Part shown: positions 22,182-64,000 of the stretch, one piece after another
Layout of the letters: each line of letters starts with the position of its first letter
Position numbering within the stretch: the first letter of the stretch is position 1
DNA from: an uncultured delta proteobacterium
GTDB taxonomy: Bacteria > Myxococcota_A > Polyangia > Polyangiales > Polyangiaceae
Reading direction: 5' to 3'
Assembly: GCA_963716725.1 (NCBI GenBank)
Contig: CAVQUB010000003.1
Span: 128,001-192,000, forward strand
DNA: 64,000 nt
Position numbers and translations under genes: made by a program
Notes under the pieces: generated by a model
What the model saw: only the letters and a program-made list of their open reading frames with translations
Databases searched by the model: none
Told to the model about the DNA's origin: nothing

Positions 22182-22479
22182 GGGACGAGGGTAAAGGAGT
22201 TCGTCGGCCCCGGCACCGTTATCCGTCGGCGCGCTCTTTTCATTGCCGTCGCGATCTCATCGGCGCCCAATCGACCCCGGCCCAAGCCCAGACACGAGCT
22301 GTCGCTCGGCCCCGCAGCGGCGGCTCACTATGCCGCGACGGACCGGCGGCGACGCGCTTTTCAAACCCCCGCTAGGCCAGCGTGAAGCTCGTCTCGCCGG
22401 ATCCGGCCAGGCGCTGGCGAAGAGCGACGGCGCAGCAGCACGCGCGCCGTCGCGACGAACCCTGGCGTTCCCGACCCAC

Positions 22480-22528
22480 AAAAAACCCGTCCCCCCCGTT
22501 CGCGCGCGAGCGCGAATTTGGGGGGGAC
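22480..22528 (-). terminator. Probable intrinsic terminator after the 22560-23231 gene
   Basis: Long stem (GTCCCCCCC..TTCGCGC / GCGCGAA..GGGGGGGAC) followed on the minus strand by GGGTTTTTT. Confidence 0.65.
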
Positions 22529-22559
22529 CGACGCCGCTTCGCGGCGGCGAGGGGGGGCA

Positions 22560-23231
22560 TCACTTCTCGTAGAGTTGAGCGGCGGCGATGCCCGATCCGC
22601 CTGCGACTTCGAGCACCAGCTTGACCGGGACGGCCATGGGGAAGGCGTTCTTGTAGCAGTTCGGTTTCTTGCCGAGCACGGCCTGGGCGCCGGTGTCCTG
22701 ATCGTTCGCGAGGATCATCGCCGAACCCGGGAGGGGCGTCACGGCGACGAACTTCACGTTGACCTCGCTCACCGGCGCTAGACCCGAAGCGACGACCGTG
22801 TAGCACTTGCCAGGCTGAAGCTGGACCTGCGACTCGAGGAACTGGCCCTGCTGGAAGTTACCCGCGAGGGCCGATCCGACCGGCTTGCTGCCGGCGACCG
22901 CGTTCTGCGTCGCGAGCTGGTTCAAAACCTGCGTCGCCGCGCCTGCGAGCATCGGATCGACGGGCTGCGCCTGGCCGCCGCCTGCCGGCGGCGCTGTGGG
23001 CGCAGCGGTGGGCTGCGCCGTGGGTTGAGCGCCCGGCTGCTGCTGCGGGTAGGCGCCCGGCTGCTGCTGCGGGTAGGCGCCCGGCTGCTGCTGATAGCCG
23101 CCCGGCTGCTGCTGGCCGTACGGCTGCTGCTGGTAACCCGCCGTCTGGGCTTCGTCGTCCTTCTTCTTGCAACCCACCATGCCGCTGAGAACGACCACGC
23201 CAACAACACTAAGGATGAACCCGTTTCGCAT
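22560..23231 (-). CDS. Lipoprotein with Gln/Pro repeats and a C-terminal beta-sandwich-like domain
   Basis: GAGGAG RBS, MRNGFILS..MVGC lipobox, (QQQPGAYP)n 24-bp repeats. Confidence 0.8.
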   Translation of the reverse strand: MRNGFILSVVGVVVLSGMVGCKKKDDEAQTAGYQQQPYGQQQPGGYQQQPGAYPQQQPGAYPQQQPGAQPTAQPTAAPTAPPAGGGQAQPVDPMLAGAATQVLNQLATQNAVAGSKPVGSALAGNFQQGQFLESQVQLQPGKCYTVVASGLAPVSEVNVKFVAVTPLPGSAMILANDQDTGAQAVLGKKPNCYKNAFPMAVPVKLVLEVAGGSGIAAAQLYEK

Positions 23232-23293
23232 GACAACTCCTCGCTCGCGCCTCTCGTACGGTTTCCGCACGCGCGGCGACCTAGGGCCGCGGA

Positions 23294-23323
23294 AGGCTAC
23301 AATTAGACGGGCCGCGGGGTAAA
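23294..23323 (-). promoter_or_regulatory. Candidate sigma70-type promoter (TTTACC-N18-TAGCCT) for the 22560-23231 lipoprotein
   Basis: Motif resemblance only. Confidence 0.3.
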
Positions 23324-23344
23324 GCTCGTCACGCGGCGGGCTAA

Positions 23345-23377
23345 TTTCTGGGAAAAGCCTGCAAAATCAAGGAAGAA
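23345..23377 (-). other. Chromosomal protospacer identical to CRISPR spacer 15
   Basis: Reverse complement of TTTCTGGGAAAAGCCTGCAAAATCAAGGAAGAA equals the spacer at 59427-59459, 33/33. Confidence 0.97.
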
Positions 23378-25676
23378 CCACGGCGCCGGGGTTCCGATCG
23401 ACGCCCCCGCTGTGCTCCGTTTGCGGAGCGCCAGGCAGACTCGCTTGCGCGTGGAGGCTCCAGGTGGCTCCCGCGGCGGCGGCCGGTGCCCCCTTTGGCA
23501 GCGTGTAGGTTTGCGTGCCGCCGGCGTCCACGAAGATGCCGTAGGTCGGCATCTCGTCGCGAGTGGTGAAGGGCCCGGCGTGCCCGAGCGACGCGCAACC
23601 GTAGGTGTTGGCCCCGGCCGGCGTGTACGTGTCGTCGCCACCGATGTTGATCAGGCCGCCCGCGCCCTGTGAGTTGCCGCAGCCCAGCGAGAGCCCGGGC
23701 GCGGTGTAGTCGTCGTTGCCGCCGGCATCGACCTGCAGCGCACCGGAGAAGTCATGACCCACGCCGATGCTCGTCGCGCGGACGGGGAAGTCTTTGTTGT
23801 ACAGGTCGTCGCCGGCGTGATCGAAGTGAAAGCCCAGCGCAAAGTGCGCGCTCGCGCCTTGCACGTACCAGAGCCCCTTGTAGGTGTCGTTGCCGGATTT
23901 GTCGGAGAGCACACCGAAGCCCAGCCAGTAGCCCGATCCCTGCCCGAAGACGCTGACCGTGTACTCGTCTTTGCCGGCGCGGTCGTAGAGCACGCCGTGC
24001 CCGCCGCCCATGTAGAGCTTGCTCTTGTCGTCGCGCCGACCGAAGCCCGCGCCCTGACACATGCTGGTATTGCCTTGACCCGGCAGTTGCGCCGACGGGT
24101 AGAGCGGATCGCCGCCGATGGCCGGATCACCCGGATCCGCAAACCAGTGATCGTCGCCGCCGCCGTCGATGGCCACGCCGACCCCGCGCACGTAGCCGAA
24201 GCCCTGGGACGCGTAGAACGTGCGGTACTCGTCGCTGCCCGCCCGATCGATCAGCGCGCCGATGCCCCACATCGCCGAGCCTTGGCTGGTGCTCTCGGCC
24301 ACGTAGCGATCGTCGCCGCCGTCGTCGAAGAGCACGCCCACGCCCATCGCGCCGGCGCCTTGAGAGAGGGTCAGGGAGGCGTATTCGTCGTCCTGCCCGC
24401 CGAGATCCCAGAGCAGACCGACGCCGAGCACCCCGCTGCCCTGACGCCCGACCCGCGACAGCGTCTGACCCGTGGCGCCGGCGAGCCCGTAGCGACCCGC
24501 GGAGTCCGACGGCGGTCGCGTCGCCTTGTCCAGCGAATCGGCGGAGATCTCGTAACCGTAGCGATCCTTGCCGCCCAGATCGACGAAGACCCCGACCGGG
24601 ACTTCGCGCCGACCGACTCCGATCGGGACTTCGTAGGTGTCATCACCACCGAGCTCGAGCACGAACGCGCCGCGCTCGGCGAGGTGCCCCGCCGCGTAGG
24701 TGTCGGATCCGGGACCTCCGATCACGACGGCACCAATCGGCGTGTCGACGGCCAGTGCCGGCAGCGCGCGGTTCGCGAACTTGGACAGGCTCGCCGCCTC
24801 CACGGCCCGCGCCACCAGGGCGGCCGCAGCCGCGAGGCGCTTCTCGTCGACCTTCTTCAAATAGCCGACGCTGGTCGTGTCCACCAGGAACGGCGCCGTG
24901 GGCAGGATCACGAAGCCGTGCACGCGCTCGAGGAAGTCGAGCTCTTCGCTGACGTCGGTGCCGAACGACGCGCGCACCTCGCTCGCGGCATAGGCGATGG
25001 TCGCAAGCACTGGCACCAGCGCCTGTTGCAGATCGAGCGGCACGCCCTGGGTCACGGCCGCCAGATCCGAAGCGTTGCCCGCGCCCAGCTTCGACAGCGC
25101 TGCCGCCAGCGGCGCCGCATCGGCGCTCACCAGATCCCAACCGTCGAGCTTGGCGCAAACGTCGATGTCGTGGCCCTTGCGCACCGAGGCCGCGAGCACG
25201 ACGCTCGACACGGTCTGATCGCCGTCGAGCGCGGCATCGAAGAAGCTCTCGGTCTCTTGCACGAAGCTCGGCGCGCGCAGGATCGCGGAGTGCAGCGGGC
25301 GAAAGCTCGGGAGCTGATAGCCGTCGTCGGCAAAGATCGGCTTCCAGATCGCCATCGTCGCGTCCGAAAACCCGTAGCCGCAGCGGTCGATGCCGGCTTT
25401 GCCCAGCGCGTCGTCGAGGGCGTCGGGAGCCGATGGTTTCTTCACCGGGCAGCTCGCGTCGCCGGGCGGCGGCGCCGCGGCAGGTGACTTCACGCAAATC
25501 GGGCTGAGCGGTTGGGACACGTCGCCCGCCTCACCGGCGACTCCCCCGGTGCCGCCGCCGACGGAGCCCCCGGCGCCGCCGGAGCCCGCCGGCTCGCCGC
25601 CGTCGTCGCCCCCGCACGCGGCAAACACTCCGCCCGAGAGCAGCGCCAGAACACCCAACCCCGAGAGCAGACGCAT
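23367..25676 (-). CDS. Large lipoprotein with repeated D-x-x-G-x-D-x-Y...QG motifs, function unknown
   Basis: Lipobox FAAC; multiple GxDxY / SQGxG..GxG repeats. Confidence 0.75.
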   Translation of the reverse strand: MRLLSGLGVLALLSGGVFAACGGDDGGEPAGSGGAGGSVGGGTGGVAGEAGDVSQPLSPICVKSPAAAPPPGDASCPVKKPSAPDALDDALGKAGIDRCGYGFSDATMAIWKPIFADDGYQLPSFRPLHSAILRAPSFVQETESFFDAALDGDQTVSSVVLAASVRKGHDIDVCAKLDGWDLVSADAAPLAAALSKLGAGNASDLAAVTQGVPLDLQQALVPVLATIAYAASEVRASFGTDVSEELDFLERVHGFVILPTAPFLVDTTSVGYLKKVDEKRLAAAAALVARAVEAASLSKFANRALPALAVDTPIGAVVIGGPGSDTYAAGHLAERGAFVLELGGDDTYEVPIGVGRREVPVGVFVDLGGKDRYGYEISADSLDKATRPPSDSAGRYGLAGATGQTLSRVGRQGSGVLGVGLLWDLGGQDDEYASLTLSQGAGAMGVGVLFDDGGDDRYVAESTSQGSAMWGIGALIDRAGSDEYRTFYASQGFGYVRGVGVAIDGGGDDHWFADPGDPAIGGDPLYPSAQLPGQGNTSMCQGAGFGRRDDKSKLYMGGGHGVLYDRAGKDEYTVSVFGQGSGYWLGFGVLSDKSGNDTYKGLWYVQGASAHFALGFHFDHAGDDLYNKDFPVRATSIGVGHDFSGALQVDAGGNDDYTAPGLSLGCGNSQGAGGLINIGGDDTYTPAGANTYGCASLGHAGPFTTRDEMPTYGIFVDAGGTQTYTLPKGAPAAAAGATWSLHAQASLPGAPQTEHSGGVDRNPGAVVLP

Positions 25677-49433: not shown

Positions 49434-52151
49434 GTGCGATCGGTCGGGGTGAGTGCAGTGCGGGGATCGCCAACAACATTCTGGGGCAAGCTCGAGAAGG
49501 CCGAAGGCGGCGAGGTCCTCGCGTGGCATCCCCTGCTCGCGCACAGCGCCGACGTGGCGGCGTGTGCAGAGGCGTTGCTGCAACGAACGCTGCTGCGCCA
49601 GCGTCTCGCGACACTCGGTGGACGCAGCGACCTCGACGACGTGGACATCGCGCGGCTGGCAGCGCTCGCTGCCCTGCACGACATCGGCAAGTTCAACCTG
49701 GGCTTTCAGAGAAAGAGCACGCAGGACCAGCACGACACCGCCGGGCACGTCAAAGAGGTTCTGGCGCTGTTCGGATCCGACTTTCGCGAGCGAGATCGGC
49801 TCTTCGAGGCCCTGCCCACCGACCCCATGGCTCGGTGGTGCGACTCCGAGGGAGCCTTCGAGTTGCTGGTCGCGGCGATCGGGCACCACGGAAAACCCGT
49901 CGCGTGCGACGCGCAGGCACCGGTTCCCGCCCTATGGCAGAGGTCGTTGCCGCTGGATCCCTTCGAGGGGGTCGCCTCGCTGACAGCGAGCGTTCGGTGC
50001 TGGTTTCCGCCGGCGTTCGAAACGTCGCGCTCGGGCCTTCCGGACACACCCGCGTTTCAGCATGCCTTCGCGGGGCTGGTCATGCTGGCGGATTGGCTCG
50101 GATCGGATCGCCAGGTCTTTCCGTTCGCGGACGACTTGAGCGATCGAGTGGAGTTTGCACGCAGCCAAGCAGCGAAGGCGCTGGCTCAGATTGGCCTCGA
50201 CACTCACGCAAGCCGCGCGTCACTCGGGCCGGAAGCGCCCGGATTCGGCGCAGTGAGTGGGTACACACCGCGTGCGGCGCAGACCGCGACGCTGGAGCTG
50301 CCCACAGAACCCAACGGAACCCTGACGGTGTTGGAGTCCGAAACGGGCTCCGGCAAGACAGAAGCTGCGCTGGTTCGCTTTGCGCGAATGTTCCACGCAG
50401 GCCTGGTCGATGGGATGACCTTCGCGCTCCCGACGCGCACGGCGGCGACGCAGCTGCATGGTCGCATCCGCGCCGCCATCCGCCGCGCCTTTCCAGACGA
50501 GGCCGTGCGCCCCCCGGTCGTTCTTGCGGTGCCCGGATACCTTCAGGTCGATGACATGGTGGGCCGACGACTCCCAAGGTTCGAGGTGCTATGGAATGAC
50601 GAGGCCAAGGAGCGAGACCGACATCGCGGCTGGGCTGCCGAACATCCGAAACGGTACCTCGCAGGCGCAATCGTCGTGGGCACCGTCGACCAGGTCCTGC
50701 TCTCGTCCCTGCGAGTCGGTCACGCCCATCTTCGAGCGACCGCGCTGCTGCGCCATCTGCTTGTCGTCGACGAAGTTCACGCTTCCGACGCGTACATGAA
50801 CCGCATCCTCGAGGAGGTGCTGCGGTTCCACATCGCTGCTGGTGGCCACGCATTTCTGATGTCCGCGACGCTGGGCTCGCACGTGCGGCGACGGTTGGAG
50901 CACGCGGCCCTGGGAGCGAAATCGTCCGACACGGACGAGCGTGACGGTTCGCTTGAAACCGCCCTCGCAACTCCCTACCCGGTCCTTCACCACGGGAACC
51001 GCCACCAGCCCAGCCGCGCGAGTGCCGTGACGACACCCGGACCTTCAAGAACCGTCAACGTGACGCTGGAGAGCCTCGCGGACTGTCCAGACGCCATCGT
51101 CGCCCGCGCGCTGGCCGCTGCCCGCGACGGAGCGCGGGTCATCGTCCTCCGGAACACGGTCAGCGACGCCGTAGCGACCCAGCTCGCGCTGGAGGAGCAG
51201 ATCGGGGCCGGCGACGGGGCGCTCCGTCTTGTGGCAAACGGCGTGCACTGCCTCCACCACGCCCGGTTCTCGAAGCCCGACCGCGAGCTGCTCGATCAGG
51301 CCATCGAATCGCGGTTCGGCAAGAGCGCACCCGTTCGCGGTGGCGCGATTGCGATCACGACTCAGACCGTCCAGCAGAGCCTCGACCTAGATGCCGATTT
51401 CATGCTCACTGATCTCGCCCCGATGGACGTTCTCTTGCAGCGCTTCGGACGCCTCCATCGGCATCGAGAGCGCGACCCCGATCGTCCAACCGCCTTCGGC
51501 GTGGCTCGCGCCGTTGTGATGACCGGGGACGAGCCGCTGGACACTTGCTTGCGCGCCAACGGTGAGGCTCGGGGCAGCCACGGCGCCGGCACCGTGTACT
51601 CGGACCTCGTCGTCCTGGAGGCCACCCGGCAGCGTCTCGCGCAGAGCGGAGAGCTTCGAATCCCGGAGCAGAATCGCGAACTGGTAGAGGTGACGACGCA
51701 CCCGGACGCGCTTCGGGCTCTCGTGAGCGCCCTCGGGGGAAGCTGGCCGGCTCACCACCAGAACGTCTGGGGGCGCCACTTCGCACATGTGGGCCTCGCA
51801 GGGCTGAACCTGGTCGAGAGGGACAAGCGTTTTGGCACGTACTCGTTCGCGCGGACAGAACTGGAGGAGCGCATAGCGTCGCGCCTGGGCGAGAGCACTC
51901 GTCAGGTGGTCTTCAGCGTCGCACCGAAAGGCCCTTTCGGGACGCACGTTCACCAGCTCAACATCCCTGGCTGGCTTGCGCGGGAGGTTCCCCCCGATCC
52001 CGGGCTCGAACCGGCCGGCGTCGTCGAGGGCACCGGACCGAAGGGGCAGGAGCTCCGCTTTTCGTTGGGTGGCGTGCACTTTGTCTACGACCGGTTCGGA
52101 CTGCGGAAAGAAGACGTCGCAACGGTGGAGGATGACATTGCGGACGAATAG
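49434..52151 (+). CDS. cas3: CRISPR-associated HD nuclease/helicase
   Basis: HSADV, LHDIGK, HHG, ADWLGS; ETGSGKT, DEVH, SAT, QRFGRLHRH. Confidence 0.95.
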   Translation: MRSVGVSAVRGSPTTFWGKLEKAEGGEVLAWHPLLAHSADVAACAEALLQRTLLRQRLATLGGRSDLDDVDIARLAALAALHDIGKFNLGFQRKSTQDQHDTAGHVKEVLALFGSDFRERDRLFEALPTDPMARWCDSEGAFELLVAAIGHHGKPVACDAQAPVPALWQRSLPLDPFEGVASLTASVRCWFPPAFETSRSGLPDTPAFQHAFAGLVMLADWLGSDRQVFPFADDLSDRVEFARSQAAKALAQIGLDTHASRASLGPEAPGFGAVSGYTPRAAQTATLELPTEPNGTLTVLESETGSGKTEAALVRFARMFHAGLVDGMTFALPTRTAATQLHGRIRAAIRRAFPDEAVRPPVVLAVPGYLQVDDMVGRRLPRFEVLWNDEAKERDRHRGWAAEHPKRYLAGAIVVGTVDQVLLSSLRVGHAHLRATALLRHLLVVDEVHASDAYMNRILEEVLRFHIAAGGHAFLMSATLGSHVRRRLEHAALGAKSSDTDERDGSLETALATPYPVLHHGNRHQPSRASAVTTPGPSRTVNVTLESLADCPDAIVARALAAARDGARVIVLRNTVSDAVATQLALEEQIGAGDGALRLVANGVHCLHHARFSKPDRELLDQAIESRFGKSAPVRGGAIAITTQTVQQSLDLDADFMLTDLAPMDVLLQRFGRLHRHRERDPDRPTAFGVARAVVMTGDEPLDTCLRANGEARGSHGAGTVYSDLVVLEATRQRLAQSGELRIPEQNRELVEVTTHPDALRALVSALGGSWPAHHQNVWGRHFAHVGLAGLNLVERDKRFGTYSFARTELEERIASRLGESTRQVVFSVAPKGPFGTHVHQLNIPGWLAREVPPDPGLEPAGVVEGTGPKGQELRFSLGGVHFVYDRFGLRKEDVATVEDDIADE

Positions 52152-52195
52152 ATCGCTTTCTTCAAGAGTATCCCCAATGCCCGAAGGAGACCGAA

Positions 52196-53785
52196 GTGGC
52201 CGACGGTAACGATCCTGGGGTGCAGCATTCGCTGCTCGATGAAGCGGTAATTGGCGTCGAAGGGCGAGAAGGCGATCGCACACGGGTCACCTTGCCCGCG
52301 CTGCTCGCTCGACTCTCGCGCGGCGAAGACACGGAGCTCACCGCCATTCAGGCGCATCAGCAGCACGCTTGGCACGCATTCACGGTTCAGCTCGCGGCCA
52401 TCGCCCTGGCCCGCGCGAACGAGACCCTCGAAGCGGCCAAGGACGAGCCGGCTTGGCGGGCGCTCCTTGTCGCGGCTGCGGAGGGGGACGCCTCTGGTCC
52501 GGAGGCCTTCGCGTTGGTCGTGAACGATCTTGCGAAGCCTGCGTTCATGCAGGCGCCGGTCCCGGAGGGTTCACTCGCTCCCCTGAAGAACGAGCACGAA
52601 CGGCCCAGCTCTGAGCTCGAGGTCCTGATCACGTCGAAGAACCACGATGTCAAGATCAACCGATTGGCCCAGCCGAGCGTGGAACACTGGGTCTTCGCGC
52701 TGGTCACGCTCCAGACCATGCAGGGGTTCCTGGGTGCGGGGAACTATGGCATCGCGCGGATGAACGGCGGCTTCGCGAGCCGTCCCTGCGTTTCGTTCGC
52801 GCCCGAGACCCGCGCCTCAGCGAGATTCGTTCGCGACGTCGGCCTCCTGCTCGAAGCCCGCGAGGAACTGCTCGCTCGCGGATTCGCCGGCAAGGGAGGG
52901 CTCGGGCTCGTGTGGTGCGCAGCCTGGGATGGCTCGAGTTCCCTCTCGCTCGCGAAACTCGATCCCTTCTTCATCGAAATCTGTCGGCGCGTTCGGCTGG
53001 TGGCCCCCGCCGGAAAGCTGGTCGCCCATCGCGGCTCGAGCAAAGTCGCTCGCATCGACGGCAGTCAGCTCACGGGCAACACCGGCGACGCTTGGACGCC
53101 GGTTTCGAGGAAGGACGGCAAGGCGCTGACCGTGTCCGAAAGCGGCTTCACCTACGAACGCGTCCAGGATCTCATGTTCGGAGACTGGGCTCCGCCTGTT
53201 GCCGCGGACCCGGACAAAGGAGCCGGGCGCTACTGGGTCGGGCAGGTGCTCGTGCGAGGACAGGGAAAGACCGGCGGTTACCACGAACGCTGGGTGCCCG
53301 TACCCGGCAAGGCCCGGGGCTTCTTGGCCAAGCCCGACGCGCGCGCGACGCTCGGCAAGCGCGCGCAGGAGTGGGTCTCTTTCGCCAAGGTCGCGAGGCT
53401 CAACATCCTCAAGCCGGCGCTGCTGAATTTGCTGCAGGGCGGCCCGGAGAAGCTCAAGTTCGACGACGATCGCGCGGAGCCTTTCCTCGCACACCTGAAC
53501 CAAGCCATCGACGGCGTCTTCTTCCCGATGCTCTTCCAGTTGGCCGCGCAAGAACCGGAACAGGCAAACCTCACGTTCGCTCGAGAGCTGCTCGATCTCG
53601 CGCGGGCCGAACTCGAGCGCGCAACGACCGGAGTCCCGATGAGCTCGGCGCGCAGGCACCGCGCCATCTCGTATGCGTATCGCTCGTTCTGGGGCGCGGC
53701 GCGCAACAGGAAGGACTTCCCTCGGACCAATCTGCCCACCGGATCCACCTCCACCCCCGCTGACTCGGACGGAGACGCCACATGA
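52196..53785 (+). CDS. cas8e: Type I-E large subunit Cse1/CasA
   Basis: Position after cas3; LQTMQGFLGAGNYGIARMNGG, FFIEICRRVRL. Confidence 0.85.
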   Translation: MADGNDPGVQHSLLDEAVIGVEGREGDRTRVTLPALLARLSRGEDTELTAIQAHQQHAWHAFTVQLAAIALARANETLEAAKDEPAWRALLVAAAEGDASGPEAFALVVNDLAKPAFMQAPVPEGSLAPLKNEHERPSSELEVLITSKNHDVKINRLAQPSVEHWVFALVTLQTMQGFLGAGNYGIARMNGGFASRPCVSFAPETRASARFVRDVGLLLEAREELLARGFAGKGGLGLVWCAAWDGSSSLSLAKLDPFFIEICRRVRLVAPAGKLVAHRGSSKVARIDGSQLTGNTGDAWTPVSRKDGKALTVSESGFTYERVQDLMFGDWAPPVAADPDKGAGRYWVGQVLVRGQGKTGGYHERWVPVPGKARGFLAKPDARATLGKRAQEWVSFAKVARLNILKPALLNLLQGGPEKLKFDDDRAEPFLAHLNQAIDGVFFPMLFQLAAQEPEQANLTFARELLDLARAELERATTGVPMSSARRHRAISYAYRSFWGAARNRKDFPRTNLPTGSTSTPADSDGDAT

Positions 53786-54351
53786 CTGAACCTGATCAAA
53801 AGGAAGCCCCAGAGACGGACGCAACGAGCGGCGGCGCACCGACGGAGTCGCGCGCGGACGTTCGCAGCAGGGTGTTGGGCGCCCTTCGGCACACGTTGGA
53901 ACGTGCGGACCCCGGCGTGCTCGCACGATTGCGACGCGCCGACCCTCGCTCCCCTCCGCCCGACTTCTTCCGCGTGTCGGTGGACGTGCTCGACGAAATC
54001 CTGCCCGGCAGAGGGCCCATTCGCGACGAGCAAGAGACACGTTGGGCGGTGATCGTCCAAGCGATGGCGATGGCTCTGGGCACCAACGCAAAGAGCGGAG
54101 GCCTGCTCGGCGGCGCCCCGTTCGGCAAGGCGTTGGCCACCGCGGGAGTCGCAGAGATGCGCATGCTGCGCCTCTTGGAGGCTGAGGCCGACCAGCTCCC
54201 GGCCCTAACCCGTCAACTGGTCTCGCAGCTGGTCAGCCGCGGCGAACCCTTCAGCGTCGGCGATCTGGCCGCGCTGGTCCTGGACCGCGATCCCGAGCGT
54301 GCTCGGCGCGAGATTGCCCGCAACTTCTACCGTCACCTCGAGAGCAACTGA
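53782..54351 (+). CDS. cas11: Type I-E small subunit Cse2/CasB
   Basis: LARLRRA, E.RMLRLL, IARNFY; position in operon. Confidence 0.85.
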   Translation: MTEPDQKEAPETDATSGGAPTESRADVRSRVLGALRHTLERADPGVLARLRRADPRSPPPDFFRVSVDVLDEILPGRGPIRDEQETRWAVIVQAMAMALGTNAKSGGLLGGAPFGKALATAGVAEMRMLRLLEAEADQLPALTRQLVSQLVSRGEPFSVGDLAALVLDRDPERARREIARNFYRHLESN

Positions 54352-54363
54352 TCGGAGACCCCC

Positions 54364-55656
54364 ATGAGCCAATCGAGCCAGAAACCCCTCTTCATTCAAA
54401 TCCACACCCTCACTTCCTACCCCGGAAGCCTGTTGAACCGAGACGACCAGGGTTTCGCGAAACGCCTCCCCTTTGGCGGGGCGACGCGTACTCGGATTTC
54501 GTCGCAATGCCTCAAGCGTCATTGGCGGACGTTCCGCGGCGAGCACTCGTTGGCCTCGCTTCACGACGCGAAGGACCCGGTTGAGCTCTCCATCCGGTCA
54601 CGTCACACCTTTGATCGCTTCGTCGTCCAGCCGCTGATCGCCGATGGGGTGTCGGCTGAACTGGCGCGCGCGGCGACCGAAGCGGTTATGACAGCGGTGC
54701 TCGGCGAGAGCGCCAAGGCGAAGAAGGCCAAGGACGACGCCAAGAGCGAGGACGGAGCCGCGAAGCCCGCGAAGAAGGGGAAGGCGAACAAGGACGACGG
54801 GGAAGCTGCAGATGCAAAGCTGATGACCGGTCAAATCACGGTGCTCGGCCGTCCGGAGATCGACTTCTTCCTCGCCGAAGCCCGCGCCCTGGCCAGTGAC
54901 GCGGGGTCGGCCGACAAGATAGAGGACGCGAAGAAGCGACGCTTCACCAAGGACTGGGGCAAGAATCTGGACGGGCTGAAGCGAGCGGCAGGGCTGGATG
55001 CCGCGCTGTTCGGCCGGATGGTCACCAGCAGCAAGCTGGCGCGCGCCGACGCCGCGATCCACGTCGCCCACGCCTTCACCGTGCACAGCGAACACGCCGA
55101 GACCGACTACTTCGCCGCCATCGACGACCTGCTCGGCACGGGCGACGACGCGGACCAACTGGGGAGCGGGCACATCGGCAACACCGAGCTCACCAGCGGG
55201 CTCTTCTACGGATACGTGGTCGTGGACGTCGCGCAGCTCGTCTCCAACCTCGAGGGGTGCGCGCAGCGCGACTGGGCCGCCGCGGACCGCCGGCTAGCGG
55301 CCGAGGTCGTCCACAATCTCGTGCACCTCGTCTCGCGGGTGTCGCCGGGCGCCAAGGTCGGATCGACGGCACCGCACGCATTCGCCCACCTCGCCTTGGC
55401 CGAGGCCGGCTCGAGCCAGCCGCGAACATTGGCCAACGCATTCTTGAAGCCGGTCGCGGACCGGCCGGATTTGCTGGCGAACGCCTACGCAGCTCTCTCG
55501 CGCTACGCGCAAGAGGTCGACTCTGTGTACGCGCTGGACAATCGCCGCGCGCTGGCCGGGATTGGCGCAACGGACGATCTCAGGGCGCTCGGCACGCCTG
55601 TGTCCATCGACGCCGTGGCGAAGTTTGCTGCCGGAGCGATCATGGAGCATTCCTGA
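54364..55656 (+). CDS. cas7: Type I-E backbone subunit Cse4/CasC
   Basis: LLNRDDQG.AK, RISSQCLKR, ALFGRM, DYFAAIDDL. Confidence 0.95.
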   Translation: MSQSSQKPLFIQIHTLTSYPGSLLNRDDQGFAKRLPFGGATRTRISSQCLKRHWRTFRGEHSLASLHDAKDPVELSIRSRHTFDRFVVQPLIADGVSAELARAATEAVMTAVLGESAKAKKAKDDAKSEDGAAKPAKKGKANKDDGEAADAKLMTGQITVLGRPEIDFFLAEARALASDAGSADKIEDAKKRRFTKDWGKNLDGLKRAAGLDAALFGRMVTSSKLARADAAIHVAHAFTVHSEHAETDYFAAIDDLLGTGDDADQLGSGHIGNTELTSGLFYGYVVVDVAQLVSNLEGCAQRDWAAADRRLAAEVVHNLVHLVSRVSPGAKVGSTAPHAFAHLALAEAGSSQPRTLANAFLKPVADRPDLLANAYAALSRYAQEVDSVYALDNRRALAGIGATDDLRALGTPVSIDAVAKFAAGAIMEHS

Positions 55657-56405
55657 TGGAGATCGCGTTTCTGCGATTCGACGCCCCGCTCATGAGCTTC
55701 GGCTCGGTGGCCGTCGATCAAGCGAACAAGACCGACCTCTACCCGTACCGTGCGATGCTGGTTGGCCTTCTCGCGAATGCGCTTGGCCACACCCGAGACG
55801 AGGTTGAGAAGCACGAGGCGCTCCAGTCAGGGCTGCGATACGCTGCCCGCCGGGACCGATCGGGCACGACGCTGGTGGATTTCCAGACAGTCGACTTCCG
55901 GAGTGACGGCCCGATGGCTTCGGAGCTGGGCTGGACGGCCGAGGGCGAGCTGGAGGAGCGAGCTGGTGGTGCCGCGAGCGAAGGAACGCACATCCGATAT
56001 CGCCACTATGTCGCCGACAGCATCGTCACCGTGGCGTTCGCGCTCAGTGGCGAGAAGGGGCTCCAAACCGATCAGGTAGTCGATGCGCTCAGACGACCCG
56101 CGCGCCCGCTGTTCTTGGGGAGAAAGTGCTGCATCCCTTCCGCGCCTGTGTTTCTCGAGCTCGGGGCCGCGGGATCGTTGCGCGAGGCACTGAGCGACCT
56201 GCCCCGAGTGGACCGCCGCGGGGAAGACGGCGCACTCCCTGCCATTTGGCCGGCGTCAGAAGAAGCTGACCCGGACCGCCCGCTCTGGCCGCGCGTCGAA
56301 GATCGCGACTGGAGGAACGCGATCCACGTTGGTCGCCGAATGTACGTCGAGGGACATGTAGACCCGCCGTACCCCTCCACGTCGGACAGGCAGGCAGCGC
56401 CATGA
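55656..56405 (+). CDS. cas5: Type I-E CasD
   Basis: APLMSFG, GLLANALG, DFQTV, LFLGRKCC. Confidence 0.93.
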   Translation: MEIAFLRFDAPLMSFGSVAVDQANKTDLYPYRAMLVGLLANALGHTRDEVEKHEALQSGLRYAARRDRSGTTLVDFQTVDFRSDGPMASELGWTAEGELEERAGGAASEGTHIRYRHYVADSIVTVAFALSGEKGLQTDQVVDALRRPARPLFLGRKCCIPSAPVFLELGAAGSLREALSDLPRVDRRGEDGALPAIWPASEEADPDRPLWPRVEDRDWRNAIHVGRRMYVEGHVDPPYPSTSDRQAAP

Positions 56406-57166
56406 TGCAGGATCTTCACCTCGTCCGGATGAACATCGACAGCCAGGCGTTGTACCGGTTCGCGCGGCGCTCGCGCTTGCCCGCCCGGGATTTCGACGAG
56501 GGATATGCCGTGCACGCACTGCTGGCGGCCTTGTTCGACAGCGAGACGAACCCCGACGCGCGCGTCGCGCCAAAGCCCTTCCGCTTGGTCGATCCCGCCA
56601 GACGCATGATCGAAGTGCTTGGGTACGCGAGCCTCGATCACCGAGCGCTCGGCGAACGCGCAAAGTCGTTTGCCGACCCGCTCGCCTGGGATGTCTGCAA
56701 CGTGGATGAAATCGCATCGCGACCCGTGCCGCAGTTTCAAGTGGGTAGCGAACTGGGATTTTCCGTTCGCGTCTGCCCGGTGCGCCGCGTGGCCAAGCGG
56801 GGCAACCAGCAGAAGGAGCGCGCTGAGGTCGACGCCTTCTTGGCAAAGGTCTGGGAGATCGATGACCCGGAGGTCATGGTCGATCGCGAATCCGTGTACC
56901 TCGAATGGCTTCGGTCAGAGGTACAGAAGGACGGCGCGGCACTGCTCCGTAACGCCGAACTGACTAGCTTTCAGCTGGGCCGACAGCACCGGCGAACGCA
57001 GGGGCAAGATCGACGCGGAGCACGCCTGTCCCATCCCGAGGCCTGCTTCGAGGGGTCTCTCGAGGTCCGCGATCCTGCGTCATTCGCGGCGCGACTTGGC
57101 CGAGGGCTGGGCCGACACCGCTCCTTCGGTTTCGGCATGCTCCTGCTCAAACCTGCGAGGAGCTAG
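56402..57166 (+). CDS. cas6e: Type I-E crRNA endoribonuclease Cse3/CasE
   Basis: YAVH, C-terminal GLGRHRSFGFGMLL. Confidence 0.92.
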   Translation: MMQDLHLVRMNIDSQALYRFARRSRLPARDFDEGYAVHALLAALFDSETNPDARVAPKPFRLVDPARRMIEVLGYASLDHRALGERAKSFADPLAWDVCNVDEIASRPVPQFQVGSELGFSVRVCPVRRVAKRGNQQKERAEVDAFLAKVWEIDDPEVMVDRESVYLEWLRSEVQKDGAALLRNAELTSFQLGRQHRRTQGQDRRGARLSHPEACFEGSLEVRDPASFAARLGRGLGRHRSFGFGMLLLKPARS

Positions 57167-57169
57167 CGG

Positions 57170-58132
57170 GTGAAGTCCCGTCGCCAGATGCCCAGCGACA
57201 CCGCGACCGCGGAAGGTGGCGAGGGCGCCGGCAAGGAAATGCGCGGCCGCCTGGGGCTGGAAACCGCCCGCATTCCACAGCAGGACCGGCATGGTTTGCT
57301 TTGGCTTGGGCGCGGCCAACTCTACGTGCACGACGGAACCCTACGCTTCAAATGCGCCGGCTTCGGCGATCTCGAACCGGGCGACTACTCGATCCCATTC
57401 CAACTCCTGACCTGCATCGTGCTGCAACCGGGGACGTCGCTCACCCACGATGTGCTCCGACTCTGCGCGGCGCATGGCACAGGGATCGTCGCGGTCGGAG
57501 AGGGAGGTGTTCGGTACTTCGCGAGCTCGCCCTTCGGGCCGAACGAATCGGCGCGAGCGCGGCGGCAAGCGCTGTTGTGGGCAAACCAGGCCGACCGGCT
57601 GACAGTTGCGCGGCGCATGTATGCATGGCGGCTCGGTGAGGTCTTTCCCAGTGCCGACATAGCCGTGCTCCGCGGGATGGAGGGCTCGCGGATGAAGGAG
57701 ACCTACAAGCGCCTCGCAAACCAGTTCCAGGTTCCGTGGGCGGGTCGCAGATACGATCGCGACAAACCCGAGGCTACTGACCTGTCCAACCAGGCGATCA
57801 ACCACACCGTCACCGCCGTCGAAGCGACGGCGATGGTCGCAGTCGCCGTGACCGGCGCCGTGCCGCAACTTGGATTCATTCATGAGGATGCCGGACACGC
57901 ATTCACCTTGGACGTCACCGACCTGTTTCGGGACACCGTCACGTTGCCGGTGGCCTTCACGGCGGCAAGACAGGCTGCCCAGCGGCCTGGCGAACCGGTA
58001 GAACGAATCGCCAGGCGCCTTGCCGCGAAGACGCTGCGAGAGAACAAGATCGTCCTTCGAATGATCGACCGAATCAAAGAGATGCTCGACTCGGACGGTG
58101 GAGAATTCAGCGCCGACGGGGATCGAACTTGA
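57170..58132 (+). CDS. cas1: Type I-E integrase
   Basis: LRGMEG, LGFIH, D..D; start may be 57188 or 57239. Confidence 0.95.
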   Translation: MKSRRQMPSDTATAEGGEGAGKEMRGRLGLETARIPQQDRHGLLWLGRGQLYVHDGTLRFKCAGFGDLEPGDYSIPFQLLTCIVLQPGTSLTHDVLRLCAAHGTGIVAVGEGGVRYFASSPFGPNESARARRQALLWANQADRLTVARRMYAWRLGEVFPSADIAVLRGMEGSRMKETYKRLANQFQVPWAGRRYDRDKPEATDLSNQAINHTVTAVEATAMVAVAVTGAVPQLGFIHEDAGHAFTLDVTDLFRDTVTLPVAFTAARQAAQRPGEPVERIARRLAAKTLRENKIVLRMIDRIKEMLDSDGGEFSADGDRT

Positions 58133-58154
58133 CCGACCCCGGGAAGGCCGCCGG

Positions 58155-58502
58155 ATGGCGATGACGATCGTCGTCACCCGGAACGCCGAGGGTCGCGTAC
58201 GCGGCTTTCTGGCGTCGACCATGCTCGAGATCGCCGCGGGCGTTTACACCTCCCCCAACATGACGCCGGCCGTTCGCGATCGGGTCTGGGCCGTCCTGGA
58301 AAAGTGGCGCGTCGGGAGCCGCAACGACGGGGCTCTCATGACCTGGCCCGACGCAGCCGCGCCCGGCGGCCAGCAGATTCGCACTCTCGGTGAAGCGCCC
58401 ATCGACCTCGCGGAGACCCCCGCGATCGTGCTCGCGAGGCGGCCTCTCGGCGAGGACGAGATCCGTTCTTTGAAATCCCAAGTTGATGATCTGCCGTTTT
58501 GA
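58155..58502 (+). CDS. cas2: Type I-E Cas2
   Basis: RVRGFLA..MLEIAAGVY..RDRVW. Confidence 0.92.
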   Translation: MAMTIVVTRNAEGRVRGFLASTMLEIAAGVYTSPNMTPAVRDRVWAVLEKWRVGSRNDGALMTWPDAAAPGGQQIRTLGEAPIDLAETPAIVLARRPLGEDEIRSLKSQVDDLPF

Positions 58503-58585
58503 CCGGCGCCGCTGCCGGCGCTGCGCTTGACGGCAGCGGCCAAGGCGGCACAGCCTTGGCACACGCTGGCTCATTTGGTCTCAGA
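58503..58585 (+). promoter_or_regulatory. Probable CRISPR leader (short, GC-rich, two inverted repeats)
   Basis: Lies between cas2 and repeat 1; repeat orientation matches the I-E consensus on the + strand. Confidence 0.6.
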
Positions 58586-61500
58586 GGCTCCTCCGCACGC
58601 GCGGAGGTCTACCCCATCGGACGAGCGCCCGGACTGGCGGCGTGGCTCCTCCGCACGCGCGGAGGTCTACCCGATCCGCCAGCGGCCGCCGACGCCGACG
58701 CGGCTCCTCCGCACGCGCGGAGGTCTACCCTGCGGCGGGACGACCGATCCGCCGCCGGGCTCCTCCGCACGCGCGGAGGTCTACCTCGTGCCTTGACGGA
58801 CCGCACCGCCGCAGGCTCCTCCGCACGCGCGGAGGTCTACCCTGCACCGGCACGGTGCTTTCATCGGGCTAGGCTCCTCCGCACGCGCGGAGGTCTACCC
58901 GTCGGTCGCACGGCCGACGCGGCAGGGCTCCTCCGCACGCGCGGAGGTCTACCCACGTCAGCGCGCCGAGTCGCGCACGGCTCCTCCGCACGCGCGGAGG
59001 TCTACCTGTACCGACGTGATGGCGGGACGGCCAGGCTCCTCCGCACGCGCGGAGGTCTACCCGATCGCGGCACGGGCGCGGCTGGGCGGCTCCTCCGCAC
59101 GCGCGGAGGTCTACCCGACGCGGGACGCCGTCCCAGCGCGACGCGGGCTCCTCCGCACGCGCGGAGGTCTACCTCGACGCGTGGCGCGGTGCGCGTACGC
59201 GCGAGCGCGGCTCCTCCGCACGCGCGGAGGTCTACCTGCCTCCGACGCGCCACGTCGTACTCGCGCGACGCGGGCTCCTCCGCACGCGCGGAGGTCTACC
59301 CGGAGCTGTCGCGCGTCGATGTGCTCGAACTGAAGGCTCCTCCGCACGCGCGGAGGTCTACCCTGCACTCGTGGACCATGCGCGCGAGTCGCGTCGAGGG
59401 CTCCTCCGCACGCGCGGAGGTCTACCTTCTTCCTTGATTTTGCAGGCTTTTCCCAGAAAGGCTCCTCCGCACGCGCGGAGGTCTACCCGGGTGGGAGTGC
59501 TAGCCGCACTCGTCGCGGTAGGCTCCTCCGCACGCGCGGAGGTCTACCCGCTAGCGGTGTGGGTTCGCATCCCGGTGTCGAGGCTCCTCCGCACGCGCGG
59601 AGGTCTACCGTCTTCTGCCACTGGCTTTGCTCCTTGCTCCGTGGCTCCTCCGCACGCGCGGAGGTCTACCCATCGAAAAAAGAGCCTGTGAAGATGCGGT
59701 AGAGGCTCCTCCGCACGCGCGGAGGTCTACCTTCGAGAATCTCCCACCGTACACCATAGACTTGGGCTCCTCCGCACGCGCGGAGGTCTACCTTGCGCAT
59801 ATCCGTCAGCTTCGAATATCCCAGTGGCTCCTCCGCACGCGCGGAGGTCTACCCCGTTCAAGAACGCCATCCGCCGCGACCTCGACGGCTCCTCCGCACG
59901 CGCGGAGGTCTACCTTCTCCCCAGCGAAACGGCAGCGGACCGTAGCCGGCTCCTCCGCACGCGCGGAGGTCTACCTTCCACCAACCGCAGCAAGCAACCC
60001 AAGACCTAGGCTCCTCCGCACGCGCGGAGGTCTACCCCGCTCAAGAACGCCATCCGTCGCGACTGCGGCGGCTCCTCCGCACGCGCGGAGGTCTACCTGT
60101 TCGACACTTCGACGGACGCATCAAAAACATGGCTCCTCCGCACGCGCGGAGGTCTACCCCAGGGCTGGGTCTGGCTCCCCGAATGGCAGGCGGCTCCTCC
60201 GCACGCGCGGAGGTCTACCCTGATGAAGGCTCGCCCCGAGCTCGATGCAACGGGCTCCTCCGCACGCGCGGAGGTCTACCCCTGGCGCCCCCGGTGATCG
60301 TGGTGCCCGCGTCGGCTCCTCCGCACGCGCGGAGGTCTACCTGATGTCCACCGTTGAAACATCGGCGCCGGCAGGGCTCCTCCGCACGCGCGGAGGTCTA
60401 CCCTTCACCGCCAAAGGTGCGAGACTCGAAGCGTGGGCTCCTCCGCACGCGCGGAGGTCTACCTCCTGTCCCCGATCCGAAGCCAAGCGCGGAAGAGGCT
60501 CCTCCGCACGCGCGGAGGTCTACCTTATGACCGGTTCTCTCCCCGAATCACGCTCCAGGCTCCTCCGCACGCGCGGAGGTCTACCCTGCTTGCGAAGGCG
60601 GAAGCCGCTGCGATCAAGGGCTCCTCCGCACGCGCGGAGGTCTACCCGTCAACCAGTGGGCCCGAGGGCAGGTGTTTCAGGCTCCTCCGCACGCGCGGAG
60701 GTCTACCCGCGATGGTGCGCGTTGCTGACCTGTTGCTGGCGGCTCCTCCGCACGCGCGGAGGTCTACCTCAATCGGCTTTCCGCAAAGCGTTCCGGGCGA
60801 AGGCTCCTCCGCACGCGCGGAGGTCTACCCAATGACATGCGATGCTTCACATCGGCGATTCCGGCTCCTCCGCACGCGCGGAGGTCTACCCGCTAAGCGC
60901 GCTTGACACTGCTATCCCTTGCCGGCTCCTCCGCACGCGCGGAGGTCTACCTCCCGAGCGACTGGGACGCGAGAGCGGTGAAAGGGCTCCTCCGCACGCG
61001 CGGAGGTCTACCCAGAGGTGGCCAACGCTACGGGTACACGGTGACGGCTCCTCCGCACGCGCGGAGGTCTACCCTATTACACCACCCGCGAAGCCTTGGA
61101 GCTTGGGGCTCCTCCGCACGCGCGGAGGTCTACCCCTTCCCACAGAGCAAGAGAAACGAAGCCTAGCGGCTCCTCCGCACGCGCGGAGGTCTACCTTGAT
61201 TCCTATTGGCTACTCCGAGAGCGACTGGGGCTCCTCCGCACGCGCGGAGGTCTACCCCTGATCACGAGTCCGCCAGCCAATGGTCAGCAGGCTCCTCCGC
61301 ACGCGCGGAGGTCTACCCGGGGCCGATGGCTTTGCGGGCACCCACATTCAGGCTCCTCCGCACGCGCGGAGGTCTACCTCGAATACTCCGACCGCTATCG
61401 AGTTCCGCCCAGGCTCCTCCGCACGCGCGGAGGTCTACCCTCCACGTCGCTCACGCCCCCGCACTCATCGCAGGCTCCTCCGCACGCGCGGAGGTCTACC

Positions 61501-63999
61501 CGGTCCGCGGTATTCGTCGCCGCCTACGCTTCCGGCTCCTCCGCACGCGCGGAGGTCTACCCCCGTCGTGCAGTTCGCGACCGCTTCTGGCGCTGGCTCC
61601 TCCGCACGCGCGGAGGTCTACCCCCACACCACAAGGCTAGCGCAAGCAAGCGCCAGGCTCCTCCGCACGCGCGGAGGTCTACCTCGACATCCGCTCGATG
61701 ACGCAGACGTGCACGCGGCTCCTCCGCACGCGCGGAGGTCTACCCAGCGGGCTTCGCTCGATGCTGTCGAAGCTGACGGCTCCTCCGCACGCGCGGAGGT
61801 CTACCCGCAGGCGGCACCGTCACGCAGGTCGGCCCGACGGCTCCTCCGCACGCGCGGAGGTCTACCCACCAGCACCACGGACGGCGGCAGCCTGGCCCAG
61901 GCTCCTCCGCACGCGCGGAGGTCTACCCCGGGTCCGCGATGCTTCCAGATACGCCTCTTCGGCTCCTCCGCACGCGCGGAGGTCTACCTGCCTCTACGAC
62001 GGCGCTCGGCTCGCATCCCAGGGCTCCTCCGCACGCGCGGAGGTCTACCTATCACTTTCCCGCTGAGTGCAGTCGCTCTGGGGCTCCTCCGCACGCGCGG
62101 AGGTCTACCCGATGCCGGTGATCGGCAAGCGTCTGGCGCGTTGGCTCCTCCGCACGCGCGGAGGTCTACCTGTCACGCTGCTGCTCAGCAAGCGCGAGCT
62201 TCAGGCTCCTCCGCACGCGCGGAGGTCTACCCCCGCAAGAATCGATCGGTGTGTCGAGCGGCCCGGCTCCTCCGCACGCGCGGAGGTCTACCTCGTGGTG
62301 GACGTGGCCCGTGTAGAAGTGGCGAGGCTCCTCCGCACGCGCGGAGGTCTACCGCCGTGGATCAAGACCGAGATCGACCGCGCGGGGGCTCCTCCGCACG
62401 CGCGGAGGTCTACCCGAATCGGCAGCGGGCAGAATCCTCCAAGCGGCGGCTCCTCCGCACGCGCGGAGGTCTACCCTCGGCGCGTCGAAGAGCGAGGCCG
62501 ACCGGCTGGGCTCCTCCGCACGCGCGGAGGTCTACCTATCACTTTCCCGCTGAGTGCAGTCGCTCTGGGGCTCCTCCGCACGCGCGGAGGTCTACCCGCT
62601 GACGGTGTACGGTCGGATCTCGAACTCGGGGCTCCTCCGCACGCGCGGAGGTCTACCCTCCAGGCGGGCCGCGGGAGCGCCTACACCACGGGCTCCTCCG
62701 CACGCGCGGAGGTCTACCGCCGCGGTGAGGTTCGTGAGCGCCGAGCCGTTGGGCTCCTCCGCACGCGCGGAGGTCTACCCCTTCGTCTCGCTCGGGTGCG
62801 AATCGACGTCTGGGCTCCTCCGCACGCGCGGAGGTCTACCCTGGGGACTCGCAGAGAACGGCGGACAGGCGGTGGCTCCTCCGCACGCGCGGAGGTCTAC
62901 CCCAGTAGTCCCCGTTAGGGTAGACGTACACGTCGGCTCCTCCGCACGCGCGGAGGTCTACCTGGACGTTGACCCATGGCGCGGACCTCTGTCCAGGCTC
63001 CTCCGCACGCGCGGAGGTCTACCTCGGCCTGAATAGCTATCAGACCATCCCGTTCGGGCTCCTCCGCACGCGCGGAGGTCTACCCACCATCCGGTTCTAC
63101 GGGGTCGGAGCGACGACGGCTCCTCCGCACGCGCGGAGGTCTACCCGTCGAGGGCTTCCTGGCTGCGCTCGAGAAGGCGGCTCCTCCGCACGCGCGGAGG
63201 TCTACCTTGATGTGACCGCGGGGACCTACACCTTCTCTGGGCTCCTCCGCACGCGCGGAGGTCTACCCGCAGCGGCGCAGATGAACCGCGGCGTTCCCGA
63301 GGCTCCTCCGCACGCGCGGAGGTCTACCTGTCCATCTCTCGCGCGCACGGCGGGACGAGCGGGCTCCTCCGCACGCGCGGAGGTCTACCTTGCGAAGCCA
63401 TGTGAGCATCGAGATAAAGCACGGCTCCTCCGCACGCGCGGAGGTCTACCGCCGAGGACACGCTTGCCTTGTTCGTGGACCTGGGCTCCTCCGCACGCGC
63501 GGAGGTCTACCCGACTTTTGGCTACTGGACCGCGGGTTCAGCGTGGCTCCTCCGCACGCGCGGAGGTCTACCCGAGTATTTACAGAGCACGTACTACCTC
63601 GCGCAGGCTCCTCCGCACGCGCGGAGGTCTACCTCAGCGAACAGGCTGAGGCGGTCGCGGAGGTCGGGCTCCTCCGCACGCGCGGAGGTCTACCCCTGAA
63701 GGCGGTGTCAGCTCTCGGGCGCAAGGGGGCTCCTCCGCACGCGCGGAGGTCTACCCGTCGTCCCCGCGCTGCCGTCCGTGCGGTGGTAGGCTCCTCCGCA
63801 CGCGCGGAGGTCTACCCCCCTATGGCGCATATGCGTCGGGCTCCGGCGAGGCTCCTCCGCACGCGCGGAGGTCTACCTCGTTGGCAAGTGGGGAAAAAAG
63901 GGCGGGCTGAGGCTCCTCCGCACGCGCGGAGGTCTACCTGGTGGGTAGCCGTTCCCGCTCCGGTCCAAGATGGCTCCTCCGCACGCGCGGAGGTCTACC
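58586..63999 (+). CRISPR. Type I-E array, 28-bp repeat GGCTCCTCCGCACGCGCGGAGGTCTACC, 90 repeats and 89 spacers in window, continues past the edge
   Basis: Repeats look identical by eye, with a CCTCCGC/GCGGAGG hairpin; 61-bp period from 59399 onward. Confidence 0.99.
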
Positions 64000-64000
64000 C

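Follow-up and report, generated by a model that had tools for sequence, protein, structure and literature searches.

A self-matching spacer in a complete type I-E locus

The 64,000-nt stretch of DNA analysed here (the window; positions 128001-192000 of contig C3 in the 7.89-Mb, 35-contig assembly G000, 68% G+C) carries a type I-E CRISPR-Cas locus in which one spacer, spacer 15, is identical over its full length to a chromosomal site 36 kb away on the same contig. This assembly was binned from the metagenome of a mixed population, with 84% completeness and 3.9% contamination. The 33-mer was found in exactly two copies in the window, one in the array on the plus strand and one outside any array on the minus strand, with 0 mismatches between them (Table 1). 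A control of 100 shuffles gave no match, even with up to three mismatches allowed. All 111 spacers of the array were searched against the whole 35-contig assembly, and outside the array only spacer 15 found a full match; none of the remaining 110 spacers matched the genome fully, and the next best spacer reached 25/34 identities. Within the array, spacer 15 is flanked by a perfect 28-nt repeat on each side. The 33/33 identity with the minus strand, first pointed out in a preliminary description of this DNA made from the sequence alone, was reproduced in full.

The cas genes form a single operon with the order cas3-cse1-cse2-cas7-cas5-cas6e-cas1-cas2, and all eight reading frames are open. Each of the eight matched an NCBIfam type I-E family, seven above the curated cut-off and one below it, namely cse1, which encodes Cas8e, the subunit that reads the protospacer-adjacent motif (PAM). 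Cas3 contains all of the HD motifs (HSAD, HDIGK, GHHGK and LADW) and all of the helicase motifs (GSGKT, DEVH, SAT and QRFGRLHR). The profile matches, motifs and open frames bear out the earlier statement that the Cas3 motifs and every Cascade gene appear intact. The exact self-match in an intact-looking type I-E locus is real.

The locus is not a general property of the genus. A Cas7e query across seven genomes of the genus matched two of them, G000 itself and G004, the latter at 38% identity, and the other five gave no Cas7e match at all. The repeats closest to the G000 repeat were found in other genera of the family. Since one of the seven genus genomes has the locus and the closest repeats lie in other genera, the type I-E locus is accessory and was probably transferred.

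Table 1. Window coordinates of the self-match, its flanks, the target region and the type I-E locus
Feature	Position	Strand	Description
Spacer 15	59427..59459	+	33 nt; 39% G+C (array minimum); transcribed with the array
Chromosomal protospacer	23345..23377	-	3' end of the 769-aa gene (last codons and stop) and 22 intergenic nt
Flank on the CRISPR RNA (crRNA) 15 side	23378..23379	-	GG directly 5' of the 33-mer (GG-T); predicted non-PAM
Flank at the opposite end	23343..23344	+	AA directly 5' of the 33-mer (GCTAA-T, 23343-23345); exact register
769-aa gene	23367..25676	-	Of no known family; last codons and stop inside the protospacer
Small lipoprotein-like gene	22560..23231	-	Downstream of the target; ATG at 23231 and N-terminus conserved in 7 genomes
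Near-invariant block	23284..23332	-	About 45 nt; 7 same-genus genomes; 13 nt from the protospacer; variable sequence around it
CRISPR array	58586..64000	+	28-nt repeat; 89 spacers in the window; continues past the window end
Leader	58503..58585	+	Between the cas2 stop and the first repeat
Spacers 1-14	58614..59398	+	25-36 nt; leader side of spacer 15
cas3	49434..52151	+	905 aa; E 1.3e-55 to chain 4q2c_A (solved type I-E Cas3), residues 4-752
cse1/cas8e	52196..53785	+	529 aa; TIGR02547 67.5 bits against a cut-off of 70.05
cse2	53782..54351	+	189 aa
cas7e	54364..55656	+	430 aa; 274.8 bits
cas5e	55257..56405	+	Longest-frame coordinates; family match from residue 138; true start probably near 55660
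cas6e	56402..57166	+	254 aa
cas1e	57170..58132	+	320 aa; only cas1 found in the 84%-complete assembly
cas2e	58098..58502	+	134 aa

The target site on the chromosome

The last codons of the 769-aa reading frame and its TGA stop (23369-23367) fall within the protospacer, which ends 114 nt upstream of the ATG of the small lipoprotein-like gene, in agreement with the position and the distance that had been given for it. The genes around the target encode Lgt, type III pantothenate kinase (CoaX), a signal peptidase, an S41 peptidase, a poly(A)/CCA polymerase and FtsEX. Within about 10 kb of the target there were no integrase or phage genes, and the window had no tRNA genes. Both genes flanking the target are syntenic in six genomes of the same genus, at 70-82% identity. 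With housekeeping neighbours, syntenic flanks and a window free of tRNA genes, the site does not resemble those hit by prophage-directed self-targeting, and the preliminary view that it lies among core-looking genes without prophage features agrees with these housekeeping neighbours and with the lack of mobile-element genes nearby.

A 7-way alignment placed the protospacer in the variable part of the intergenic region, and the target sequence was absent from all aligned intergenic regions of the six same-genus relatives. Exact scans of metagenome, genome and viral (IMG/VR) collections with spacer 15 found no other copy, each giving 0 matches. Because the target stretch was absent from the relatives and from the collections scanned, the spacer must derive from this lineage's own chromosome. 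Spacer 15 equals a native, non-mobile site that is found in this lineage only, beside a type I-E system that looks intact.

Between the protospacer and the lipoprotein gene lies the near-invariant block of Table 1, a putative promoter or regulatory site of that gene. The block could be read as a -35 element GTGACG (23332-23327) and a -10 element TCTAAT (23307-23302) separated by a 19-nt spacer, and it contains the motif CGTCTAA, which we take to resemble the -10 elements of extracytoplasmic function (ECF) sigma factors. A consensus scan of 22300-23700 for sigma-70 promoters (16-18-nt spacer) and terminators found no site, and positions 22000-24000 contained no Rfam families.

The array and its leader end

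The whole array (C3:186586-193341) consists of 112 repeats and 111 spacers, of which 97 are 32-33 nt long, and only the last repeat is degenerate. Its hairpin repeat, its spacer lengths and the leader beside cas2 are those of type I-E arrays, which have 28/29-nt repeats with a central hairpin and 32/33-nt spacers. Related arrays have leaders with the same kind of end, TGGCAC..GGTCTCAG-like. Since this leader end is shared, the far-end repeat is degenerate and the repeat has the same sense as catalogued type I-E repeats, the leader adjoins cas2 and the crRNAs are read from the plus strand. The leaders of the G000 array (window 58540-58585) and of four related arrays (L011, L012, L013 and L015) end alike, with TGGCAC ... 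GGTCTCAG and then A or G directly before repeat 1. The TGGCAC element resembles the -24 part of a sigma-54 promoter.

Counted from the leader, spacer 15 is the 15th unit and has 14 units on its leader side, and the earlier suggestion that it was probably a recent acquisition was not borne out. The 14 leader-side spacers are odd. Their G+C content is 75%, compared to 63% in the regular spacers, and they contain 0.226 CpG per nt, compared to 0.121. Six of them share the 7-mer CGACGCG or its complement, with 8 copies over a total of 421 nt, whereas the regular spacers have 2 copies over 3199 nt and the genome rate is 0.0012 per nt. All 14 begin with C or T. In related arrays, regular 33-nt spacers run all the way up to the leader. 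Spacers 1-14 may be real and stem from an unusual source, an unusual mode of adaptation or a loosened length ruler. Alternatively, strains may carry different leader-end spacers whose reads were merged into a consensus artefact. Among the 32 listed pieces, out of 276, from the contigs of the sequencing runs described below, 16 were full-length pieces of about 88 nt, and all of these lay on spacers 17-33. The bin at 59305-59391 had depth 0 in runs X3, X5 and X6, which is a hint only, as low-depth contigs cannot show absence.

The expected PAM and the flanks of the target

In type I-E systems, the last base of the PAM is carried into the array as the first base of the spacer. The 95 spacers of 33 nt in the G000 array begin with C (53), T (37) or G (5) and never with A, and the spacers of the related array in G140 begin with C (54), T (3) or A (1; n=58). 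The type I-E PAMs given by Vink et al. (2021, PMC8482600) are AAC, AAG, AAN, AAT, AAA, AC, AG and AWG, and their supplementary table holds 268 'TypeIE' rows. Counted from this supplement, AA stands immediately 5' of the spacer in all 62 rows that list a 28-nt repeat, 16/16 AAC rows have 29-nt repeats that end in C, and 8/8 AAT rows have repeats that end in T. An A at -3 and/or -2 is present in 267 of the 268 catalogued repeats, and the lone exception is an atypical 36-nt repeat. The core of the G000 repeat was not found in the same table. Together, the repeat type in the catalogue and the first bases of the spacers are strong indirect evidence that the PAM expected here is AA followed by C or T (AA-Y, with the hyphen marking the edge of the protospacer).

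On the protospacer strand, the 33-mer is preceded by ..GCGCCGTGG and starts with T, as the preliminary description had stated. The resulting GG-T is unlike any catalogued type I-E PAM, and this supports the first way out that had been offered for the survival of the cell, a non-permissive PAM. What had not been foreseen was that AA-T stands at the other end of the same 33-mer, on the opposite strand and in register, which points to an insertion of the spacer in flipped orientation. Conditional on AA being the PAM, the site has the two ends expected of a flipped spacer, AA-T on the plus strand and GG-T on the minus strand. The motif AA followed by C or T occurs at a frequency of 0.011 per genome position, and locally at 5/209 positions per strand.

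The derivation of the PAM from protospacers of other spacers, as proposed earlier, yielded none that was credible in searches of phages, plasmids, viral contigs, metagenomes and relatives. The whole array gave only chance matches or other arrays when compared with INPHARED phages and PLSDB plasmids, and exact scans of IMG/VR gave 0 matches each for spacers 15, 19, 20, 21, 26, 22/25, 99/105 and 58/66. No credible protospacer was found when 151 genomes of the family were searched with two candidates scored per genome, or when spacers 15-46 were compared with five same-genus genomes, where the best match was 28/32. The related G140 array likewise had no credible protospacer in five genomes, and in phages only its tRNA-Leu-like spacer found a match.

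The following candidates were rejected. Spacer 22 matched a halogenase-like gene of G084 at 29/33 with the flank TGG-C, and this gene is a diverged homologue and probably not the source. Spacer 63 matched an ATP-synthase-b-like gene at 29/33 with the flank CAA-G, and this weak match was rejected as the true source. The core of spacers 22/25 gave one 23-nt match in metagenomes, a coincidence in an unrelated gene of low G+C content.

Orientation of spacer 15

The most likely explanation, which we hold with moderate confidence, is that the cell acquired spacer 15 by accident from its own chromosome and inserted it flipped, which leaves its target site without a PAM and the spacer inert. The steps that follow all depend on AA being the PAM and are inferred from there onward. 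Cas1-Cas2 would have captured 23345-23377 at a proper AA-T motif on the plus strand, in an AT-rich intergenic stretch that offers AA, and the captured fragment would have been integrated into the array in the opposite orientation. The resulting crRNA 15 would pair with the plus strand, and Cas8e would meet GG-T where it needs AA. Without a licensing PAM, no stable R-loop would form, Cas3 would not be recruited and no priming would follow, and the neutral spacer would be carried along as the array grew.

Insertion of spacers in both orientations has been described for the type I-E system of E. coli (Shmakov 2014, PMC4027179). Had the fragment from this site gone in the right way round, the cell would have died, and only the flipped form would therefore be observable. 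In E. coli, PAM variants without interference were also without priming (Musharova 2019, PMC6568314). The lack of a priming signature here, with 110 other spacers that have no genome match, fits that finding, and the 14 units on the leader side fit a spacer that has long been tolerated.

Several points weigh against a flipped and inert spacer. Protospacers with a consensus motif mostly go in in the functional orientation, and the flip is rarer (Shmakov 2014, PMC4027179); here we rely on survivorship to offset that rarity. The opposite-strand AA could be there by chance, at about 1-2.5%. The Cascade of E. coli tolerates many PAMs, with 17 interfering and 11 intermediate motifs out of 64 (PMC6568314). 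The missing protospacers of the other spacers also count on this side, and the one flank that the weak match of spacer 22 offers, TGG-C and not AA, points the other way. Finally, should spacers 1-14 prove to be artefacts, no newer spacer than spacer 15 may be common to the population, which weakens the argument that it has long been tolerated.

Strain variation in the source population

Runs of at least three studies contained 35-75% of the sampled words of 50501-60500, and no RNA runs were among the runs listed as containing the locus. Contigs (k=31) from four of the runs, X1, X3, X5 and X6, were placed on 58000-60600; these can show presence but not absence. In the run contigs, the array was broken up into pieces of some 88 nt, each with one spacer. 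The target with its flanks on both sides of the 33-mer was present in a 330-nt contig of X1 and in a contig of X6. In the X6 contig, four positions of the far flank differ from G000, and AA-T is kept. The array-borne junction, 24 nt of repeat joined to 30 nt of spacer 15, was found in a 54-nt contig of X3 at a depth of 2.4, and X3 was the only run listed for it. The assembled contig alone joins spacer and target, and no read links them.

The runs also contain regular 33-nt spacers that are missing from the assembled array, and cas2, the leader and the first repeat were continuous in one contig in X1 only. The leader end of the array therefore varies between strains. X1 and X6 may lack the array copy, a weak hint that spacer 15 has not become fixed. 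In X3, a contig diverges after about 58369-58419, and the listed contigs of X5 and X6 end near 58142 and 58159.

These data bear on a population mosaic, in which the array with spacer 15 and the exact target would sit in different sub-strains, or cells with spacer 15 would be a short-lived minority, so that no single lineage would stably tolerate the pair. We regard this as unlikely, though it deserves to be taken first among the alternatives. It would suit an incomplete and partly contaminated bin whose locus recurs in runs of at least three studies, the listing of target contigs for X1 and X6 and of the array junction for X3 only, and the unassembled regular spacers together with the cas2-leader continuity confined to X1. 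Against this stand the assembly, which has spacer and target 36 kb apart on one 302-kb contig, and the presence of both in samples of one study (X1 and X3). The split between runs comes from low-depth contigs, which show presence only, and a mosaic would leave the AA-T register unexplained.

Licensing, uptake and regulation

A second possibility is that the target is licensed and interference is switched off, because an anti-CRISPR (Acr) protein blocks it, because transcription of the cas operon or array is silenced, or because a loss-of-function substitution has gone undetected. Deterioration of cas genes is rare in the presence of self-targeting, with anti-CRISPR and target mutation as other escapes (Nobrega 2020, PMC7708048), and the 16% of the genome missing from the assembly could hold such a factor. 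This explanation would need GG-Y as a PAM, against 267 of the 268 catalogued type I-E repeats, and the growing array and the fully open operon speak against long-term disuse, and we consider it quite unlikely. An example from Xanthomonas albilineans (PMC10810201) reportedly belongs with the escapes through anti-CRISPR and target mutation.

The spacer could also have been taken up in its observed orientation by sloppy, naive acquisition independent of a PAM, in which case the AA would be coincidental and tolerance would still come from the GG-T non-PAM. Motif-less protospacers enter the E. coli array in both orientations at comparable rates (PMC4027179), and with 5 of 95 33-mers starting with G, uptake in G000 is not perfectly PAM-faithful. 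The AA-T register would then have arisen by chance, at about 1.1% genome-wide and 2.4% locally, and it was kept in the variant strain of run X6, and we find such an origin improbable.

Lastly, the preliminary description raised endogenous regulation, in which Cascade would bind without cutting and repress the lipoprotein gene. Bound with crRNA 15 at the 3' end of the 769-aa gene, Cascade would modulate the small lipoprotein gene or block read-through. A stricter version would have Cas8e accept GG-Y for stable binding but not for Cas3 recruitment, so that the complex would stay permanently at the end of the 769-aa gene as a natural CRISPR interference (CRISPRi) roadblock or regulator of the small lipoprotein gene and the spacer would be kept as useful. 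The protospacer does lie close to the block shared almost unchanged by seven genomes, 13 nt away on its upstream side, and that block is itself upstream of the lipoprotein gene; spacer 15 has apparently been kept under 14 newer units. Known Cascade regulators use guides with partial matches, and in E. coli, PAM-less sites bind Cascade poorly. The idea is not supported and we judge it very improbable, with the stricter version equally remote: the pair is unique to G000, with the target in 0/6 same-genus genomes and nothing found in a spacer search of five of them; five of the six relatives have no Cas7e match and the sixth (G004) only a 38%-identical Cas7e; the protospacer would lie at about -50 to -82 in the promoter reading suggested above, off the promoter-like block and outside the core promoter; and a complete 33/33 match at a PAM-less site is the pattern of an accident.

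Comparison with known self-targeting and flipped spacers

Self-targeting spacers make up 0.4% of all spacers and are present in 18% of CRISPR-bearing genomes (Stern et al. 2010, cited via PMC6990116), and in a later survey one in five such genomes had them (Nobrega et al. 2020, PMC7708048). About half of them match non-mobile DNA (Stern et al. 2010, cited via Wimmer & Beisel 2020, PMC6990116), and a missing apparent PAM is among the reasons listed for non-effective self-targeting (PMC6990116). The match of spacer 15 is thus most likely a known and fairly ordinary kind of accident. It resembles the tolerated autoimmunity accidents in these two sources (PMC6990116, PMC7708048) in having a full genome match beside an intact cas operon. 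In over half the surveyed cases the target is a prophage, whereas the target of spacer 15 is not, and here there is a single spacer, no priming build-up, and an uncultured large-genome bacterium that is represented by a bin only.

The flipped spacers described in E. coli (Shmakov et al. 2014, PMC4027179) belong to the same subtype, have the motif at the far end on the other strand and give non-protective crRNA. Those spacers were plasmid-derived, obtained in the laboratory and associated with AAG, whereas spacer 15 is natural and self-derived, with an AA-Y motif, and its flip is suggested by one site and a catalogue PAM. The catalogued type I-E systems with 28-nt repeats and an AA PAM (PMC8482600) are alike in repeat length, hairpin, the ...CC repeat end and 33-nt spacers, as well as in the identity of the first spacer base with the last PAM base and in a complete cse1-cse2-cas7-cas5-cas6e set. 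The G000 array differs in that its first base is C or T in 90 of 95 spacers, which suggests AAY rather than strictly AAC.

CreTA modules offer a looser likeness, in that they too send a type I effector to a chromosomal site beside a promoter. In these, Cascade-guided repression depends on crRNA-like RNAs with partial matches that are conserved together with their targets. In contrast, the match of spacer 15 is complete, PAM-less and unique to one genome.

On its own, spacer 15 matters little, with self-targeting in about one fifth of CRISPR-bearing genomes and a missing PAM as a textbook escape. Its modest value is as a clean natural example in which the register of a PAM on the opposite strand allows the history of a spacer to be read, from proper capture through inverted insertion to survival by selection. 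Other paradoxical self-targets can be put through the same check of the opposite strand before one turns to Acrs or regulation. The example also shows how a metagenome bin can make self-targeting look more of a paradox than it is, since co-occurring strains have different leader ends of the array.

Further observations

Just past the stop of the lipoprotein gene, an element of about 75 nt lies on the minus strand at 22478-22570. It is present in at least 16 copies in the genome, with more in relatives, and matches neither a tRNA nor an Rfam family. Its fold (-52.4 kcal/mol, z -3.1) has two G+C-rich hairpins with a run of U after them, and it looks like a terminator repeat of the repetitive extragenic palindromic (REP) kind.

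Spacers 58 and 66 (62050-62081 and 62537-62568) are identical over 32 nt. Near-duplicates were found in the pairs 22/25 (59854-59886 and 60037-60069) and 99/105 (C3:192549-192581 and C3:192915-192947), and the two spacers of each pair share a starting position, as though a single element had been sampled twice in variant forms. In the related G140 array (L011), 26-29 nt of one spacer (minus strand, locus position 1896) match tRNA-Leu genes of many phages in the T-arm and 3' end, and this spacer may target a tRNA or an attachment site.

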